This document shows, one piece after another, positions 44,652-51,823 of a stretch of 64,000 nt of DNA. Origin of the DNA: Candidatus Polarisedimenticolaceae bacterium. GTDB lineage: Bacteria; Acidobacteriota; Polarisedimenticolia; Polarisedimenticolales; DASRJG01. The notes under the pieces are model-generated. The model was not told where the DNA came from. It searched no databases and was given only the letters and a program-made list of their open reading frames with translations. Both the position numbers and the translations under genes were made by a program. Location: assembly GCA_036275915.1 (NCBI GenBank), contig DASUCV010000015.1, forward strand, positions 12,394 through 76,393, written 5' to 3'. How positions within the stretch are numbered: the stretch's first letter is position 1; every line of letters starts with the position of its first letter.

Positions 44652-44655
44652 GGGA

Positions 44656-44725
44656 AGTTCACAGTTTACAGTTCACGGTCGACAGTTTCAGAACTGTGAA
44701 CTGTTGACTGTCGACTGTGAACTCT
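44656..44725. repeat. Heptamer array: ~5 direct AGTTCAC-like units followed by ~5 inverted units (GAACTGT), forming a ~70-bp imperfect palindrome
   Basis: Read directly: AGTTCAC AGTTTAC AGTTCAC GGTCGAC AGTTTCA | GAACTGT GAACTGT TGACTGT CGACTGT GAACTCT. It lies in the divergent promoter region between the ABC operon and the VWA gene. Confidence 0.85.
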
Positions 44726-44784: not shown

Positions 44785-47022
44785 GTGAGCCGGATGCGGG
44801 CGCCTCGATGGGCCTTAGCGACCGCCCTCGTGATCGCGGCGTGCACGTGCGCCATCGCCGGGTCCGACGAGCCGCTCCGTCCGCTCAACGCGCCCGAGGA
44901 GCGAATCGAGGCCGAGCGCCAGATTGTGATTCTCCGCCTCGATCCGCGAGGGGGCGCAAAGCTCGGCGAATGCGATTCCCTGGAGGCCGCGGACCTCTCG
45001 ATCGCAATCGGCGCGGCGCGCGTGCCGGCGAAGGTCGTGGCGGTCGAGCGCGTTCCCCGCCCGGAGAAGCACTGGCTGCTCGTGGACAGCAGCGAAAGCG
45101 CGGAGGATCGGCGGCAAGCCGCGATGAACTCGGCTCTTCAGTATGTCCAGAGCGTCATGATCCCCGGCGAAGACACCGCAGCCCTCGTCACCGTGGACGA
45201 GGATCCGATCCTGATTGACGGGCCCACGACCGATACCAAGGAGCTCGTCTCGAAGCTCCACGACGTGGCCTCGGGAAGCTGGAGCGCCCTCCGCGACGGC
45301 CTCGATGCCGTTCTCCGGCAGATTCAAGGCGACAGGCACGAGCACGTCGTCCTCTTCTGGACCGACGGCGAGGACCAAACATCGTCGACTCGGGAGGCTG
45401 ATCTCCTCGCGACGCTCGCGCGCACGCCGAACGCGACCGTGTTTCCGATCTGCCTCCTGCCCAAGGGATCGAAGTACCCACCGCCGCCGATGGCCGGGGC
45501 GATTTTCACCGGGGTCGCCCGGCGTTCTGGGGGCGAGGTGTTCAGCGCCTCGGACCCACGATGGCTCGATCGTGTCCGCGGTTGGCTTGGACGTCGCTTC
45601 ACCGTGACCTATATGCCGCCGCCCGGAAATACCGGTCAGGAAGCGGTCATCACCGTGCCGTGGAAGCGCTGCGACGTCACCCAGCTCGCCGACCCGTTCG
45701 CGACGCCCGACCCGATCGCGGGCGAGGCGGCGCCGCCGCCCGAAACGTGGATGAAGCTGCATTCTCAAATGCGGAACGGGGACGACCGGAGTTGCGCGAC
45801 CCCGAAGGGGACGCTGGCATGGGCGTGGCCGCTCTCCGCCGACGCGGCCTTCCTTTCGGGGTGCATCCTCGACGTCGTACGTGCCACCGGTCCCGTGGTG
45901 CGCGACCACGACGGTGTTCCCGACTACCGGTTTCAGTCGCCTCGCTTCGCCGCGCGCACGATTCGGATCGAGCTGCCCGCGTTCGACGAGCTGCCGGCCG
46001 ATCTCGTCTCGGCGATCTTGCCGCTGCTCCAAGACGCTGATGCCGGCGGCGAGACTTCTGCGTCGTTCATCGATGGGAGCGCGTTTCTGGCGCAGCGCGC
46101 GCAGATCGCCGCGGCGCTCTTCGCCGGCCGCGCGGATTTTCACAAGTTTGCCCAGGCACGGCTCGCCCAGATTGCCGACGCGGAGCTGCAGGCGATCGGT
46201 CACAACTTCGCCCGCGATTTCCCCAAGCTCTCGGCGGAGGAGATCGCCCTCGTCGCGCGGTCGTCGCGTGCCGGCTCGCGCTCCCTCGCCTCGGCGACGC
46301 ACCCGACTGATGCCGATCTCGCCCGGGTGCTCTCGGCGTGGATCGATGACGTCTCCGCCGTCGAGCTGTTCCGAGCGATCGAGCGGCACTTCATCGATGC
46401 CTCGATCGTCCGCGGACCCGACGACGACCTGGACGCGCTCTGGAACGCCGCGCTCGCGCGGTTCGCGATGCCCTCGCGCGTGCGCATCGAAACCCCGCTC
46501 GCGCTGATCCACGACCCGGTGCAGGACGTGGTCGGCTTCGTGCGCATCGTGCTACCCCGCCCCGAAGGATTTCGCTCGCACGACCGCCGCCTGCCGAAAG
46601 CGGGCGATCCGCTGAGCGCGCGCCTCATGCGGCGTCCGCTCGCCGTGGGACTCTTCGAGAACGTCGCCGACGATGCGGCGGTACGGTCGGCCCTCCGGTC
46701 CGGCGGGTACCGCGCGACGTCGATCGATTACAAGGCGCTCGCGGTGCCGTTCCACCACGACCCGGGCAAGCCCTACGAGGAGGCGCGCGTCACCGTGACG
46801 CTCGAGGGCCACGACGGGGCTCGCGCCGTCTTGGAGGCGAACGTGAGGGGACAGAACGACGGGGTCTTCATTGTCGACCGCCTCGTGAAGCAGGTGACCG
46901 GGGACCCTTCGCTCGACGCGATCCTCAACGGGGTTCGGGCCACACTCCGACGGAGGAGCCGACCCAGTCGAGGCCCTTGTTGTGGTCGACGCCGTGGATC
47001 TTCCCGCGCGAGAGGCGTGTGA
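44785..47022 (+). CDS. VWA-domain lipoprotein with large uncharacterised C-terminal region (745 aa)
   Basis: Lipobox VIAAC. MIDAS-type DSSES (LLVDSSESAED) and downstream WTDGEDQ are present. The last ~98 nt overlap the convergent gene. Confidence 0.75.
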   Translation: MSRMRAPRWALATALVIAACTCAIAGSDEPLRPLNAPEERIEAERQIVILRLDPRGGAKLGECDSLEAADLSIAIGAARVPAKVVAVERVPRPEKHWLLVDSSESAEDRRQAAMNSALQYVQSVMIPGEDTAALVTVDEDPILIDGPTTDTKELVSKLHDVASGSWSALRDGLDAVLRQIQGDRHEHVVLFWTDGEDQTSSTREADLLATLARTPNATVFPICLLPKGSKYPPPPMAGAIFTGVARRSGGEVFSASDPRWLDRVRGWLGRRFTVTYMPPPGNTGQEAVITVPWKRCDVTQLADPFATPDPIAGEAAPPPETWMKLHSQMRNGDDRSCATPKGTLAWAWPLSADAAFLSGCILDVVRATGPVVRDHDGVPDYRFQSPRFAARTIRIELPAFDELPADLVSAILPLLQDADAGGETSASFIDGSAFLAQRAQIAAALFAGRADFHKFAQARLAQIADAELQAIGHNFARDFPKLSAEEIALVARSSRAGSRSLASATHPTDADLARVLSAWIDDVSAVELFRAIERHFIDASIVRGPDDDLDALWNAALARFAMPSRVRIETPLALIHDPVQDVVGFVRIVLPRPEGFRSHDRRLPKAGDPLSARLMRRPLAVGLFENVADDAAVRSALRSGGYRATSIDYKALAVPFHHDPGKPYEEARVTVTLEGHDGARAVLEANVRGQNDGVFIVDRLVKQVTGDPSLDAILNGVRATLRRRSRPSRGPCCGRRRGSSRARGV

Positions 47023-48145
47023 GGTTGATCGCGAGCGTGTAGTCGCCGCCCTGGGGCTTGAGGAACATCATCCGGATCTCCGCCTTGACGCCGGTGCCGT
47101 CCGGCGCCAGCAGGGCGGGCGCGTAATCGACCTTCTCCTGCAAGATCCACTGCGATCGCTCGGCGGCGGGGATCGCGGCGAGCGCGTCCTCGGTGAGATC
47201 CGGGTTGACGCCGGTCCCCGCAAACGAGAAGAGCGGCTTCAGGATGTAGTTCCCGCAGTCGCGCGGAAGCGTGTCGACCTCGGAGAGGATCCGCGTCCAG
47301 GGAGCGGCCGGATGCTCGATCCGCGGGAGCGTGTGCTTCGACCAGATCCAGTACCAGTCCGGGTGGCAGACCCAGCGAACGTCGAGATCGTCGCGCCAGT
47401 CGAACGGGAGATGGACCGCCTTGCGCTCGAGCTCGTCGAAGACGATCCGGTTGTAGATCCGCTGCACCGGCACGAGCTTGCCGTCCTTCGGCGCCAGGAG
47501 CGTGCGGCCGTCCTTGACGATCGTCGCCGCGTCGACGGTGCGCACGCCGAGCAGGCGCCGCGTCGCATGGAAATCGGGGCGCGTCTTCTGCTGCTCGGGG
47601 TGGAGATCGAGGAGAATCGTCCCGTCGAGATCGCCGTCGCCGACGATCGTGCGCTTCAGCAGGTCGAGGTAGCCGGCGCGGTCGAGGCCGGAGAAGAGCG
47701 GCGTGAAACGCTCCGGCATCCCGGGGAGGCCGGCGAGGACCTCGCCCCAGATCTCCCCCTGCACGAGCTGCATGGCGTAGAGCGAGGGAAACCCTTGGAG
47801 CTCGATCAGGCGCGGCACGAGCTCGCCGCCCTCGCCGCGCGCGACCGCGAAGTCGATCGCGACGAACTCGGGCTCGTCCTCGATCTTCAGGCCGCGCACG
47901 CGGTAACGCCCGGGCACGGCGAGGAGGCCGGCGGCCAGGTTCTCCGGCCGGCGGATGATCGCGAGGATCTCCTCCGCCGCGACGGCGAGCTTCTTCAGCA
48001 GGTCGCCGGGAACGATGAACGGCACCTCGGCGAGGCGGAAGCCGAAGTGCGGCTCGTCGAGGCGCTCCTCCATGAGGGAGCAGACGCGCCGGTAGAGCGT
48101 CTCCGAGTAGTGGGCCGTGAAGATGTCGCGGAGGGTCTTGTCCAA
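46925..48145 (-). CDS. Uncharacterised ATP-grasp-like amide ligase (circularly permuted ATP-grasp / glutathionylspermidine-synthase-like), 406 aa
   Basis: C-terminal ILKPLFSFAGTGV ... WILQEKVDY ... NLTRLSRGKIHGVDHNKG resembles ATP-grasp nucleotide-binding segments. N-terminal FVAIDFAV...PRLIELQGFPS resembles the pre-ATP-grasp part. The TTG start at 48145 is inferred, 2 nt after the upstream stop. Confidence 0.72.
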   Translation of the reverse strand: MDKTLRDIFTAHYSETLYRRVCSLMEERLDEPHFGFRLAEVPFIVPGDLLKKLAVAAEEILAIIRRPENLAAGLLAVPGRYRVRGLKIEDEPEFVAIDFAVARGEGGELVPRLIELQGFPSLYAMQLVQGEIWGEVLAGLPGMPERFTPLFSGLDRAGYLDLLKRTIVGDGDLDGTILLDLHPEQQKTRPDFHATRRLLGVRTVDAATIVKDGRTLLAPKDGKLVPVQRIYNRIVFDELERKAVHLPFDWRDDLDVRWVCHPDWYWIWSKHTLPRIEHPAAPWTRILSEVDTLPRDCGNYILKPLFSFAGTGVNPDLTEDALAAIPAAERSQWILQEKVDYAPALLAPDGTGVKAEIRMMFLKPQGGDYTLAINLTRLSRGKIHGVDHNKGLDWVGSSVGVWPEPR

Positions 48146-48147
48146 GG

Positions 48148-49260
48148 TCAGGCGAGTCCGCGCTCGGTCTCGTCGGCGACGTAGTCCATGACCGCGCGCA
48201 GGTCGTTCGTCGCCTTGTACACCTGGAGCTGCCTCTCGGCCCCGGTGCCCTCGGCGACCATCTGCCGGACGTGGCGCACCTGCTCGCGCGTCCCGAGCTC
48301 GTCCACGACGTCGTCGATGAACTCGAGCAGCTCCTCGAGCAGCGACACGAAGGGAACCTCCTCCTGCCGCCCGAAGTCGATGAGGAGCCCGCGGATTCCC
48401 CACCGTGCCGCGCGCCACTTGTTCTCCATGATCAGCGAGCGCCGGTACTGACGGAAGGTGAGGTTGCGCGAGCGCAGGAGCCACAGCTTCGCCGTGATCG
48501 CCTGGAAGAGCGCGGCGATCGTGATCGTCTCCTCCGCGCGGAGCGGGATGTCGCAGATCCGGTACTCGAGCGTCTCGTACTTGTGATGCGGCCTCACGTC
48601 CCACCAGATCTGGCCGCCGTCGATGACGCAGTTCGTCTTGACGAGGAGCGACACGAACTCCTGGAACTCGCCGTACGAGCCGAACACGTCGGGGATGTTC
48701 GTGCGCGGGAACTTGTCGAACACCTTGCACCGGTACGACATCCAGCCGGTCTCGCGCCCGAGCCAGAACGGCGAGTTCACGGAGAGCGCCAGGATGTGCG
48801 GCAGGAAGTACCGCGCCTGGTTCATGATCGTGATCTGATCTTCGCGGTCCTCGACGCCGATGTGGACGTGGAGGCCGAAGATCAGGTTGGCGCGCGCGAC
48901 CATCTGCAGGTCGGCGATGAGGCGCTCATAGCGCGTGTTGCCGCCGCTGATCGCGACGTTGCCCCAGTGCGTGAACGGGTGGGTGCCGGCGGCGGCGATC
49001 CGGAGGCCGCTCTCGCGGGCGAGCCCGGCGAGCGACGCGCGGAGTTGGATCACCTCGCGCTTGGCCGCCGCGATGTCCTTGCAGATCTCGGTCCCGACCT
49101 CGACGACCGGCTGGTGCAGCTCGGCCTTGAGCTTCCCGCCGAGGACGCCGTGCCCCTTCTCGAAGATCGGGGCGACGTGCGAGCGCAGCTCCCGCGACGC
49201 CGGGTCGATGACCTGGAACTCCTCCTCGATCCCGACCGTCAGGCTGGGACGCCGCGCCAA
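48148..49260 (-). CDS. ybdK: Carboxylate-amine ligase, YbdK / glutamate-cysteine ligase family 2 (GCS2)
   Basis: LTVGIEEEFQVID N-terminus, plus HVHIGV and WWDVRPH motifs typical of the GCS2 family. The TTG start at 49260 is inferred. Confidence 0.88.
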   Translation of the reverse strand: MARRPSLTVGIEEEFQVIDPASRELRSHVAPIFEKGHGVLGGKLKAELHQPVVEVGTEICKDIAAAKREVIQLRASLAGLARESGLRIAAAGTHPFTHWGNVAISGGNTRYERLIADLQMVARANLIFGLHVHIGVEDREDQITIMNQARYFLPHILALSVNSPFWLGRETGWMSYRCKVFDKFPRTNIPDVFGSYGEFQEFVSLLVKTNCVIDGGQIWWDVRPHHKYETLEYRICDIPLRAEETITIAALFQAITAKLWLLRSRNLTFRQYRRSLIMENKWRAARWGIRGLLIDFGRQEEVPFVSLLEELLEFIDDVVDELGTREQVRHVRQMVAEGTGAERQLQVYKATNDLRAVMDYVADETERGLA

Positions 49261-49262
49261 CG

Positions 49263-50213
49263 CTAGACCTTGAGCGCCGCGCCCTTGAGCTTCTCCGGCC
49301 AGTTGCCGGTCAGCTCGAGCGGCTTCGGATTCTCGGCGCGGTCGATGAGCATCTCGGCGACGGTCTTCAAGACCCAGTCGAAGTTCTCCCGGCCGACCGA
49401 GAACAGGTCGCAGTCCGGCGCCGGGTTCATGAAGTCGATCGCGATCGGGACCCCGTCGCGAACGGCGAATTCGATCGTGTTGAGGTCGTACCCGAGGGCG
49501 CGGCAGAGCGCGAGAGCGTCGGCCTCGATCCGCCGCAGGAGCTTCGGCTCGGTGGGCGGCGCGTCCTTGACGTACCGGTTCTCGAAGGGGGCCTTCGGGT
49601 CGTAGCGCATGACCCGCACGTGGCGCCGGCCCACGCCATAGCACCGGTAGTACTCGGCGAAGGCGATCGCCTCCTGGGCCATCATCGAGAGCGACCGCGT
49701 CTGGTCGTACGCCTCGAAGAACTCCTTGCGATCGTCGACCTTGTAGACGTCCCGCCAGCCGCCGCCGTCGGCCGGCTTCATGTAGATCGGAAAATCGAGA
49801 TAAGAGAAGACCGCCTCCCAATCGACCGGGAACGCCAGGTTGGAGAAGGACTCGGCCTTCGTGTTGGGCGGGTGCTGCTTGTGCGGCAGGAGCACCGTCC
49901 GGGGCACCGCGACGCCGCACGCCTGGGCGACGACGTTATTGAAGTACTTGTCGTCGCAGCTCCACCAGAACGGGTTGTTGACGACCTGGACGCCGCTCGC
50001 GGCGGCCTGCTTGAGATAGGTCCGGTAGAACGGGACCTCGTGGCTGATCCGGTCGAGGATGACGTCGTAGTCGGCGGGGATGTCCTGGACGAGCGGTCCG
50101 ACGCGGCAGGCCTCGGCGACGACCTTGCCGGCACCCCTCTTGTTGATCTCGTCGACGAGCGCGGGCGGGAACGAGCGTTCCTGACCGAAGAGCAGTCCGA
50201 TCTTCTTGGGCAA
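49263..50213 (-). CDS. ATP-grasp family ligase (RimK/glutathione-synthetase-like fold), 316 aa
   Basis: Features FPIYMKPADGGGWRDVYKV (Gly-rich loop region), EYYRCYGVG, and NTIEFAVRDGVPIAIDFMNPAPD (Mg/ATP-binding end of the ATP-grasp). Confidence 0.85.
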   Translation of the reverse strand: MPKKIGLLFGQERSFPPALVDEINKRGAGKVVAEACRVGPLVQDIPADYDVILDRISHEVPFYRTYLKQAAASGVQVVNNPFWWSCDDKYFNNVVAQACGVAVPRTVLLPHKQHPPNTKAESFSNLAFPVDWEAVFSYLDFPIYMKPADGGGWRDVYKVDDRKEFFEAYDQTRSLSMMAQEAIAFAEYYRCYGVGRRHVRVMRYDPKAPFENRYVKDAPPTEPKLLRRIEADALALCRALGYDLNTIEFAVRDGVPIAIDFMNPAPDCDLFSVGRENFDWVLKTVAEMLIDRAENPKPLELTGNWPEKLKGAALKV

Positions 50214-50308
50214 TGCGAAGGTCTCCCGTAGAATGGCCGATCACTGTAGCCGAACCTCCGTCCCGCCGTAAAGGCGGCGGGGGGACGAACCGGGGGACCT
50301 GAAGCACG

Positions 50309-51019
50309 ATGCATCGCGAATATCACCGCTGGCACTCGCCCTCGCTCGGGCGCGACATGGAGCTGCTCTGGTACGGAAACTGGGGGCGGCCCCTCCTCGC
50401 CTTCCCCACCTCGCTCGGGAGCTGCTCGCAGAATGAGGACAACGGCCTCATCGGCGCCCTGGCCGACAAGATCGAGGGCGGCGAGCTCCAGATCTGCTGC
50501 GTCGACGCGATCGACTCCGAGTGCTGGTACAACGACAACGCCCACCCGGGATGGAAGATCCACCGGTACATGCAATACGACCGGTATCTCACGACCGAGG
50601 TCGTCCCTCTCATCCACAAGAAGGCCGAGCGCGACGACCTCATGACCTTCGGCGCCTCCTTCGGCGGCTATCACGCCATGAACTTCGCAGGGCGCCATCC
50701 CGAGCTCGTCTCGCGCGTCATCTCGTTCTCGGGGATCTACGGCATTCACCGCTTCCTCCACGGCTTCTGGAACGACGACTGCTATTTCAACTGCCCCGAC
50801 GCCTACTACCCGAACCTGCCGCTCGACCAGGTCGACCGCATGCGCCACATCGGCTTCGTCGTCGCGACCGGCGAGCAGGACCATCTCGTCCAGGAGAACC
50901 GCTGGTTCTCCGAGATGCTGCGCGGGAAGGGATTGAACGTGTACGCCGAATTCTGGCCCGGCGTCTTCGGCCACGACTGGCCGTACTGGCGAGAGAACCT
51001 GAAGCGATTCGTGCCTTAG
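50309..51019 (+). CDS. Alpha/beta-hydrolase 'putative esterase' family protein (esterase D / enterochelin-esterase-type fold)
   Basis: Nucleophile elbow GASFGGYHA, with a downstream Asp/His context (GEQDH...; GHDW). 236 aa. Confidence 0.85.
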   Translation: MHREYHRWHSPSLGRDMELLWYGNWGRPLLAFPTSLGSCSQNEDNGLIGALADKIEGGELQICCVDAIDSECWYNDNAHPGWKIHRYMQYDRYLTTEVVPLIHKKAERDDLMTFGASFGGYHAMNFAGRHPELVSRVISFSGIYGIHRFLHGFWNDDCYFNCPDAYYPNLPLDQVDRMRHIGFVVATGEQDHLVQENRWFSEMLRGKGLNVYAEFWPGVFGHDWPYWRENLKRFVP

Positions 51020-51020
51020 A

Positions 51021-51055
51021 AGTTCACAGTTCACAGTTCACAGTTAACAGTTGGC
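51021..51055 (+). repeat. Tandem heptamer array (AGTTCAC)3-AGTTAAC-AGTTGGC immediately upstream of the ferritin RBS
   Basis: Read directly from the sequence, between the esterase stop (51017-51019) and GGAGG (51056-51060). The unit is the same as in the array at 44656-44725. Confidence 0.85.
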
Positions 51056-51067
51056 GGAGGCGAGGCG

Positions 51068-51580
51068 ATGACCGAGACGATGACCAAGGCGATCAACGAT
51101 CAGATCCACTCCGAGCTGTCGGCGTACTACAGCTATCTCGCGATGTCCGCGCACTGCGACCGTGCGGGCTTCCCCGGCGCCGCGAAGTGGCTCCGCCTCC
51201 AGAGCAGCGAGGAGCAGACGCACGCGATGAAGCTCCTCGACTTCCTCCTGGCGCGTCACGCGAAGGTCGGTCTCCGCGAGCTCGGCGCCCCGCGTATCGA
51301 GTACAAGTCGCTCCTCGACGTCTTCGAGACCGCCTTCAAGCAGGAGCAATCGGTCAGCGCCCAGATCGAGGCGCTCTACGAGCTCGCGTTCAAGGAGAAG
51401 GCGTACCCCGCCGTCGTCCAGCTCGAGTGGTTCCTCACCGAGCAGGTCGAGGAAGAGAAGACCTGCCGCGAGATCGTCGCCAAGCTCAAGATGGTCGGCG
51501 ACGACCCCGCGTCGCTCCTCGAGATCGACCGCGAGCTGGGCGCGCGGAGCATGGCGGGAGTCGGCAAGAACGCGGAATGA
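51068..51580 (+). CDS. ftn: Ferritin (non-haem, Ftn-type)
   Basis: The ferroxidase-centre ligand pattern of ferritin-like four-helix bundles is present: E..SAYYSYLAMS, SSEEQTHAMKL, QEQ, and EWFLTEQVEEE. Confidence 0.92.
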   Translation: MTETMTKAINDQIHSELSAYYSYLAMSAHCDRAGFPGAAKWLRLQSSEEQTHAMKLLDFLLARHAKVGLRELGAPRIEYKSLLDVFETAFKQEQSVSAQIEALYELAFKEKAYPAVVQLEWFLTEQVEEEKTCREIVAKLKMVGDDPASLLEIDRELGARSMAGVGKNAE

Positions 51581-51616: not shown

Positions 51617-51823
51617 ATGAAGAAGCTCAAGCTCGTGGTCGGTGCCCTTGTGATCTTCGCCGCCGGCTGGGGCACGTGGTGTCTTGCCAAGCCGCCGGGC
51701 GGCGGTGGTGGCGGTGGCGGCACGCAGAACTGCAACCGCGTCGTCTGTGCCCAGTGCCCCGAAGGGTACGTGCTTCAGAAGGGTGCGTGGCCGGATTGCT
51801 GCGTCTGCGTTCCGGCCCCCTAG
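51617..51823 (+). CDS. Small exported Cys-rich peptide (68 aa precursor; Gly8 linker; 6 Cys in the last 29 residues)
   Basis: A strong RBS GGAGGAGG sits 6 nt before the ATG. Signal peptide MKKLKLVVGALVIFAAGWGTWCLA, then KPPGGGGGGGGTQNCNRVVCAQCPEGYVLQKGAWPDCCVCVPAP. A hairpin terminator follows directly. Confidence 0.7.
   Translation: MKKLKLVVGALVIFAAGWGTWCLAKPPGGGGGGGGTQNCNRVVCAQCPEGYVLQKGAWPDCCVCVPAP

Follow-up and report, generated by a model that had tools for sequence, protein, structure and literature searches.

The block at positions 46925-51019 of the stretch analysed here, a 64,000-nucleotide window on contig DASUCV010000015.1 of a Candidatus Polarisedimenticolaceae bacterium, carries three minus-strand genes for ATP-dependent ligases (a classical ATP-grasp enzyme, a YbdK/GCS2-type carboxylate-amine ligase and a protein that we call P3), together with a plus-strand gene for a serine hydrolase (the ‘esterase’); the open reading frames (ORFs) and their coordinates were confirmed throughout. 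What the window holds is a reduced local version of an operon that is ancient, widely conserved and uncharacterised, and which in its full form encodes an ATP-grasp enzyme, GCS2, an M29-like or class-I-GATase-like hydrolase and P3, with a small α/β serine hydrolase alongside. To judge from sequence and predicted structure, three different ligase families with intact catalytic residues form the conserved gene set, and we lean, without great assurance, towards a role in the stepwise synthesis and turnover of a small γ-glutamyl-type peptide, or peptide-amine conjugate, of three to four units.

All three ligase genes begin with TTG (at 50213, 49260 and 48145) and are joined through TAG-cg-TTG and TGA-cc-TTG junctions, such that spacers of only 2 nucleotides (nt), together with a single upstream region, define the structure of an operon (Table 1). 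Their predicted N-termini agree with the consensus of their homologues (MPKxIG..., ...GIEEEF... and MDxxLRxxFN..., respectively), and the genes called independently on a Logan contig are the same four. A preliminary description of this DNA had read here three consecutive ligase genes with 2-nt spacing and, across a 95-bp gap, a ‘putative esterase’ with a GASFGG motif. The ORFs, coordinates and junction sequences bear out the first reading; the gap is also as described, and the hydrolase beyond it matches PF00756 (48.4 bits, against a cut-off of 22). The motifs that the description quoted (ILKPLFSFAGTGV, WILQEKVDY, NLTRLSRGKIHGVDHNKG, FVAIDFAV...PRLIELQGFPS and GASFGG) are likewise all present in that form. 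Across the window, G+C content lies at 65-73% in 2-kb bins.

Table 1. Features of the ligase locus and its immediate surroundings, numbered from the first letter of the window.
Feature	Position	Strand	Remarks
Classical ATP-grasp ligase	49263-50213	-	316 aa; operon gene 1; TTG start; GGGAGA Shine-Dalgarno
YbdK/GCS2 carboxylate-amine ligase	48148-49260	-	370 aa; TTG start; PF04107
P3	46925-48145	-	406 aa; TTG start; no Pfam/NCBIfam model for the family
Alpha/beta serine hydrolase (‘putative esterase’)	50309-51019	+	236 aa; divergent; PF00756
Divergent intergenic (promoter) region	50214-50308	.	95 bp; hairpin and conserved block
Ferritin	51068-51580		PF00210

A scan for P3 over one genome per GTDB species returned 569 P3-encoding stretches, the best 80 of which were kept, and gene order was counted in the 62 P3 loci that have at least 4.4 kb upstream of P3. 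At 29 of these 62 loci the ATP-grasp and GCS2 genes lie directly upstream of P3, in the same order and orientation, and in 24 of these complete clusters the esterase gene adjoins that of the ATP-grasp enzyme. These complete clusters come from Acidobacteriota, Gemmatimonadota, Planctomycetota, Vulcanimicrobiota, Ignavibacteria/Chlorobi-like metagenome-assembled genomes and Bacteroidota; a cultured organism, Pedobacter cryoconitis (L078), has the full five-gene version. Look-ups started from esterase homologues gave the same neighbours in three cases out of three. Conservation of the genes together elsewhere, on which the preliminary description had made its reading depend, was found at 29/62 loci, in at least six phyla, and in each of the esterase-centred look-ups.

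When P3 sequences are placed on a neighbour-joining tree, every deep branch (Bacteroidota/Ignavibacteria, Acidobacteriota, Gemmatimonadota, Planctomycetota and Vulcanimicrobiota) includes loci with the full cluster, and for this reason we take the cluster to be ancestral; it is broken up in Thermoanaerobaculia and Myxococcota. Chance adjacency is ruled out by the order ATP-grasp, GCS2, (hydrolase), P3, which is kept across several phyla. The flanking MutS, α-amylase, GSDH, kinase and YchF genes were considered as core members and set aside as lineage-specific synteny.

Of the 29 complete clusters, 25 have an extra gene between GCS2 and P3, its product being M29-peptidase-like in 16 loci (PF02073, E 5e-15) and class-I-GATase-like in nine (PF00117, with Cys-His-Glu motifs visible). 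Since both deep branches of the P3 tree include each of these variants, the slot seems to have undergone non-orthologous displacement more than once. On the same tree the window’s clade is nested among M29-bearing relatives; the window’s cluster is a reduced copy, its clade having lost the M29/GATase gene, and tblastn found no homologue of either protein elsewhere in the 64-kb window.

Other loci show further substitutions and additions. In three esterase-free Chlorobi/Bacteroidota-like clusters (L069, 170-2026; L070, 1-1563; L072, 153-2708) a gene for an M3 oligoendopeptidase-F-like protein lies divergently upstream, exactly in the esterase position in L070 and L072. An extended variant (L082, 5663-7776; L009, 2708-3676) has a pyridoxal-phosphate (PLP) enzyme between the esterase and the ATP-grasp ligase, which is serine/threonine-dehydratase- or racemase-like: its best scores (263/257 bits) are to threonine-ammonia-lyase and serine/threonine-dehydratase models, all under cut-off, as against 65-69 bits for cysK models, and cysteine synthase was rejected on these scores. 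L082 also encodes a Tat-signal Asparaginase_2 (β-aspartyl-peptidase-like) protein. A different arrangement is seen in six Thermoanaerobaculia-type loci (L026, L027, L028, L030, L034 and L062), where murF directly follows the cluster ATP-grasp gene; this is a bona fide murF (e.g. L027, 3476-5883; TIGR01143, 400 bits against a cut-off of 289), which overlaps the ATP-grasp gene by 16 nt in L026, L027 and L034, and which in L027 has no dcw-cluster context. GCS2 is missing from the murF-type loci and P3 lies 0.6-5 kb downstream; esterase, ATP-grasp and murF occur together at five of the 62 P3 loci.

Where P3 is separate from the cluster, it often stands in an operon with MatE, a MATE efflux transporter (14 loci: L019, L023, L036, L038, L039, L051, L055, L056, L059, L061 and others), and in the relative P0127 (870 aa) a sodium:solute symporter (SSF) is fused in frame to P3, the only convincing fusion among P3 relatives. 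Together, the MATE operons and the SSF fusion point to a substrate or product that is a transported small molecule. The N-terminal extensions of further relatives (P0122, P0123, P0136 and others) contain no domain and resemble ORFs that were called too long, or low-complexity leaders.

On its predicted structure, the product of the first gene belongs to the ATP-grasp superfamily, and the preliminary description’s ‘classical ATP-grasp’ is upheld by fold, structural matches and conserved residues alike. The AlphaFold2 (AF2) model (predicted local distance difference test, pLDDT, 87) has the classical three-domain fold, and Foldseek returned more than 500 PDB matches at E<=1e-3, the best 50 listed being all ATP-grasp ligases and including Ddl, VanA, LysX, ArgX and RimK. 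The lowest E-values (~2e-13) go to Ddl/VanA and the highest TM-scores to LysX (3vpd), ArgX and RimK (up to 0.68/0.79, with a root-mean-square deviation of 3.4 Å). Residues K146, E181, E248, D260 and N263 are invariant in 35 homologues of 51-84% identity, and from their positions within motifs are probably the ATP-binding Lys and the Mg-binding acidic/Asn residues. At the level of families, the protein has no Pfam match and falls outside the RimK-family α-L-glutamate ligases of TIGR00768 (30.6 bits, cut-off 143.4); RimK/LysX matches in NCBIfam are weak and far under cut-off, and scores of 16-17 bits against the VanG and D-Ala-D-Ser models (cut-offs 495-520) place it outside the Ddl family.

By sequence, the second gene encodes an unambiguous YbdK/GCS2 enzyme, as had been proposed: it matches PF04107 (E 6e-58; 196.9 bits, cut-off 21) and the NCBIfam ‘carboxylate-amine ligase’ model NF010039 (506.6 bits, cut-off 371), also passes the generic YbdK-family subfamily model TIGR02050, and has E. 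coli YbdK (1r8g, E 9e-44) as its closest solved structure. Its metal-binding Glu/His residues do not vary among 32 homologues. It scores under cut-off for every NCBIfam glutamate--cysteine ligase model (PRK13517 variants, PRK13518, gshA_cyano and EgtA), with 318, 293, 221 and 61 bits against cut-offs of 409, 332, 395 and 249, and for EgtA 16 bits against 371.

P3 has no Pfam or NCBIfam match, and the window’s own protein no Pfam match of any kind even at E<=5. It has more than 4271 homologues, falling into 924 clusters at 50% identity; among the matches listed, every named one is a ‘hypothetical protein’, and one of these, from a Candidatus Polarisedimenticolaceae (Acidobacteriota) metagenome-assembled genome, has the identical sequence. 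We assign P3, from its predicted structure and a profile link, as a ligase of the glutathione-synthetase/GspS (circularly permuted ATP-grasp) type, because the AF2 model (pLDDT 89; predicted template-modelling score, pTM, 0.90) finds human, yeast and plant glutathione (GSH) synthetase, the ‘putative glutathionylspermidine synthase’ 3n6x and Cp1B in Foldseek (E 2e-12 to 1e-9, TM 0.5-0.59), and because E. coli YgiC is found (E 0.0017) by a family profile made from relatives of 29-51% identity. The top 21 PDB matches are all of the GSH-synthetase/CP_ATPgrasp/GspS class (E 2e-12 to 5e-6, TM 0.36-0.59). YgiC is the only significant sequence link from the profile to any solved structure, 3n6x being reached at E 0.16, and in the alignment K303-P304 of P3, within KPLFSFAG, falls against the KPIFSREG of YgiC.

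Weak matches to GSP_synth appear in 11 of 35 P3 relatives (best E 1e-4) and to CP_ATPgrasp_2 in four of the 35; P3 itself is under threshold for Pfam GSP_synth, CP_ATPgrasp_1/2 and GSH_synth_ATP, and lies outside those families. Across the relatives used for the profile, D98, E115, K270, K303, E356, R358 and R377 are invariant and Q117 is at least nearly so, these being residues to which, with the motifs of human GS in mind, we presume nucleotide-loop and metal-binding roles. There is no N-terminal CHAP amidase domain, in that no Pfam domain is found and the ligase fold spans all 406 residues. P3 thus defines an unmodelled family inside a known fold. The preliminary description had compared this protein to circularly permuted or glutathionylspermidine-synthase-type ATP-grasp enzymes, and had treated its being a ligase as decisive; structure prediction and the weak profile matches agree with the comparison, and the GSH-synthetase-type fold, with its conserved nucleotide-loop and metal motifs, argues for a ligase. 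YgiC and YjfC are described as peptide-spermidine ligases in the citation of Pederick 2023 given by PMC12568646.

The esterase, named by JGI an ‘esterase/lipase superfamily enzyme’, retains an intact Ser-Asp-His triad, with G115-x-S117-x-G119, D191 and H222 invariant in 30 homologues of 33-78% identity. No NCBIfam S-formylglutathione hydrolase (SFGH) model matches it, and the SFGH-type PDB match is weak (7yvt, E 0.002), generic esterases (5vol, 4rgy and 6vh9) being better; by sequence, it has no specific similarity to SFGH. Within the divergent region that separates it from the ATP-grasp gene, there is a hairpin with 10-nt arms (50259-50268 / 50278-50287), similar GC-rich hairpins being found in the divergent regions of the closest relatives, as well as one σ70-like site (TGGGCA-16-TAGAAT) oriented towards the esterase, and a block (...GATAAAGTG.CCCG.CATTCTACGGGAGA) upstream of the ATP-grasp start that is conserved in seven relatives. 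A riboswitch or known RNA was considered for this region and rejected, Rfam giving no match at E<=1 apart from chance miRNA matches.

We propose that three successive ATP-dependent (acyl-phosphate) amide ligations would build a small, cytoplasmic, non-ribosomal peptide or peptide-amine conjugate. GCS2 would activate a side-chain (γ-glutamyl-type) carboxylate for ligation to an amine; the ATP-grasp enzyme, which is RimK/LysX/Ddl-like, would form an α-peptide bond, or extend a C-terminal Glu; and P3, working as glutathione synthetase, GspS/YgiC and Cp1B do, would take the small acid or peptide so formed, activate its C-terminal carboxylate and couple it to an amino acid or polyamine. The serine hydrolase, and elsewhere the M29-like/GATase-like protein, would then trim or recycle the product, in the manner of the amidase half of bifunctional GspS. 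We infer the order of these steps, the substrates and the roles of the hydrolases from characterised relatives. That the product is a small molecule rather than a protein is favoured by the lack of a conserved small ORF and by the transporter links, and that it is a peptide is indicated by the hydrolases in the GCS2-P3 slot and by the M3 oligopeptidase in the esterase position. A ribosomally synthesised and post-translationally modified peptide, or a carrier-protein system, was considered and rejected, there being no conserved small ORF in the compact, low-GC clusters. In keeping with the preliminary description, neither the window nor the conserved cluster has a gene for a non-ribosomal peptide synthetase, alpha-E protein, transglutaminase, GNAT protein or precursor peptide.

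Several observations weigh against a stepwise peptide pathway. At 28 of the 62 P3 loci (in Thermoanaerobaculia and Myxococcota) there is no partner gene within 7 kb, so that in such loci either P3 can work outside of the cluster or the genes are scattered. The M29-like protein also has a precomputed match to Pfam NicX, a dioxygenase of the same fold, which leaves its being a peptidase in doubt; the GATase-like protein might donate ammonia instead of acting as a hydrolase; and in the window’s clade the M29/GATase hydrolase must be either dispensable or encoded elsewhere. The substrates of all the enzymes are assigned by analogy, and the relatives closest to the ATP-grasp enzyme by TM-score (LysX, ArgX and RimK) act on protein C-termini.

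The preliminary description had itself raised, as inference, a low-molecular-weight thiol derived from γ-Glu-Cys. In such a glutathione/trypanothione-like pathway GCS2 would make γ-Glu-Cys, the ATP-grasp enzyme would be GshB-like, P3 a GspS-like adder of amines and the esterase an S-acyl thioesterase. This is formally a special case of the stepwise pathway, and has in its favour that the three families correspond one-to-one to GshA-like, GshB-like and GspS-like roles, that PF00756 includes SFGHs (hence the weak match of the esterase to 7yvt), and that the hydrolases of the cluster parallel the GspS amidase domain. Against this, GCS2 fails all of the NCBIfam glutamate--cysteine ligase models, passing only the generic NF010039 and TIGR02050; the accessory PLP enzyme of L082 and L009 is dehydratase-like, and not CysK (both of these being mild counts); and no glutaredoxin, thiol reductase or S-transferase is found among the conserved neighbours. 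Bacillithiol genes are reported in several of the cluster-bearing phyla, which also counts against a further thiol. With no positive evidence emerging on any of these points (Glu-Cys ligase models, cysteine synthase, a conserved thiol-dependent neighbour), we consider the thiol unlikely. We think it distinctly unlikely that the ligases extend or tag a protein, as RimK, LysX/LysW or TTL-like systems do, with the hydrolases as erasers: the best TM-scores of the ATP-grasp enzyme, LysX, ArgX and RimK, do all belong to enzymes acting on protein C-termini, and the pairing of ligase and peptidase is typical of tag/eraser systems (RimK/RimB, PafA/Dop), but no small carrier or substrate gene is conserved in or beside the cluster, those relatives of GCS2 and P3 that have been characterised use small-molecule substrates, P3 has links to MATE and SSF transporters, and the RimK family score is far under its cut-off.

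Two other schemes were weighed. A catabolic or detoxifying γ-glutamylation of the Puu type, in which an amine joined to glutamate would undergo processing before its release by a GATase-like (PuuD-type) or M29-like hydrolase, would account for the nine loci in which a GATase-like gene stands directly between GCS2 and P3, a GS-fold ligase with a class-I-GATase-like hydrolase being the logic of PuuA/PuuD; nonetheless, the cluster has no conserved oxidase or dehydrogenase, three ligases exceed what the route needs, and the hydrolase is absent from the window’s clade, all of which makes this scheme improbable. The murF loci suggest instead a link to the cell wall, with a Ddl-like ATP-grasp enzyme making an alternative dipeptide for MurF and the remaining proteins modifying or recycling stem peptides, and here the position of murF directly after the ATP-grasp gene in six loci, the 16-nt overlap in three, and the Ddl and VanA matches as the best Foldseek E-values of the ATP-grasp enzyme can all be cited. 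Saying this, the murF arrangement is confined to one lineage, the ATP-grasp enzyme matches no Ddl model of Pfam or NCBIfam above threshold, and in all other phyla that position is held by GCS2 and not by a Mur ligase; we regard a cell-wall role as very improbable indeed.

Going further than the stepwise synthesis and turnover of a small γ-glutamyl-type conjugate, we speculate, with more doubt than confidence, that at least six phyla might make a hitherto undescribed glutathione- or trypanothione-like metabolite: a γ-glutamyl peptide, perhaps with a polyamine or unusual amino acid as its cap, that is produced by a dedicated three-ligase operon, with its pool regulated by the co-encoded hydrolases and, in some lineages, with dedicated MATE or SSF transporters to export or import it. 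Should the operon make a defined small peptide or peptide-amine, this would be a widespread and unrecognised metabolite, which could serve in redox buffering, as an osmolyte, as a metal ligand or in signalling. The host phyla are soil and sediment groups that are abundant and biochemically little studied, and wide interest would attach to a glutathione-like metabolite newly found in major soil phyla. The P3 family, with its thousands of members, would at the same time be given a function and its own family model. There is also demand for stand-alone ATP-dependent amide ligases, such as Cp1B and YgiC, as biocatalysts, and the cultured P. cryoconitis host makes direct testing possible.

The surroundings of the cluster have features of their own. 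AGTTCAC occurs 17 times in the window against 3.2 expected. Three copies stand in perfect tandem at 51021-51041, followed by AGTTAAC and AGTTGGC (to 51055), immediately past the esterase stop, with 13 nt left before the ferritin start codon; a further array (44655-44723), between divergent ABC-ATPase and VWA genes, has palindromic AGTTCAC/AGTTTAC/GGTCGAC heptamers on both arms. The ligase block had been described as bracketed by two such arrays and beside ferritin: both arrays exist, but the bracketing is loose, the left one lying 2.2 kb from P3 with the VWA gene between, and ferritin, although it is where it was placed, adjoins the cluster only in the window’s close relatives (L005 and L075). 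None of the 80 related loci has the tandem array, which is for that reason not part of the conserved cluster; arrays and ferritin both lie outside the conserved unit, and the array may be an operator for ferritin or neighbouring genes. The 3' end of P3 overlaps the convergent VWA-domain ORF (44785-47022) by 98 nt (46925-47022); the last ~30 residues of that ORF are Arg-rich and of low complexity, and its true stop may be earlier, or there may be a frameshift. On the plus strand, a 68-aa ORF at 51617-51823, which the gene call for the Logan contig includes as well, has a signal-peptide-like N-terminus, a run of eight Gly and a Cys-rich C-terminus (CNRVVCAQCPEGY...CCVCVPAP).

Amongst known systems, the closest parallel is the pathway formed by GshA, GshB and GspS, which likewise has three successive ATP-dependent ligations by a GS-fold γ-carboxylate ligase, an ATP-grasp enzyme and a GspS/GS-type ligase, as well as a dedicated turnover hydrolase in the form of the GspS amidase domain. 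The cluster departs from the glutathione/glutathionylspermidine pathway in having a YbdK-type GCS2 that fails the Glu-Cys models, an ATP-grasp enzyme that is not GshB, and all of its genes in one operon with an α/β hydrolase; P3, unlike GspS, lacks the CHAP amidase domain and is under the Pfam GSP_synth threshold. The locus accordingly resembles this pathway without belonging to it, the products falling outside the Glu-Cys ligase, GshB, GspS and SFGH families and inside the respective superfamilies. P3 has the same fold as YgiC/YjfC and 3n6x (Mfla_0391, CP_ATPgrasp_1), and with YgiC shares the KPxFSxxG nucleotide-loop motif (YVVKPIFSREGANV in YgiC, YILKPLFSFAGTGV in P3), the link being marginal in sequence (E 0.0017 for YgiC, 0.16 for 3n6x) and the genomic partners being different. 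It also resembles structurally, at ~15% identity, Cp1B (PDB 9cjn) of the fungal E-64 pathway, a glutathione-synthetase-fold ATP-grasp enzyme that couples a small acid with an amino acid, and which was once annotated as hypothetical, having no detectable identity to other characterised ATP-grasp enzymes (PMC12568646). Cp1B differs in being eukaryotic, and in belonging to a different cluster, with an oxygenase and an ANL ligase.

A full-text literature search found no paper on the cluster, the 2009 survey by Iyer, Abhiman, Burroughs and Aravind (Mol Biosyst 5:1636) standing outside this comparison. Systems of circularly permuted ATP-grasp, alpha-E and transglutaminase proteins differ from it, in that neither alpha-E nor transglutaminase is encoded in the window or among the conserved neighbours. 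The cluster for the osmoprotectant N-acetylglutaminylglutamine amide (NAGGN), comprising asnO-ngg and an M42 peptidase, brings an ATP-grasp ligase, an amidotransferase and an aminopeptidase together in one small-peptide operon; it differs in having a GNAT-ATP-grasp fusion, a class II amidotransferase and M42, and no GCS2 or GspS-like ligase. The survey of Iyer and colleagues reportedly describes amidoligase neighbourhoods in which ATP-grasp and GS-like ligases occur with peptidases of unrelated folds, and are predicted to synthesise or modify peptides; it is this general design, of several amidoligases with a peptidase, that the cluster has in common with them.

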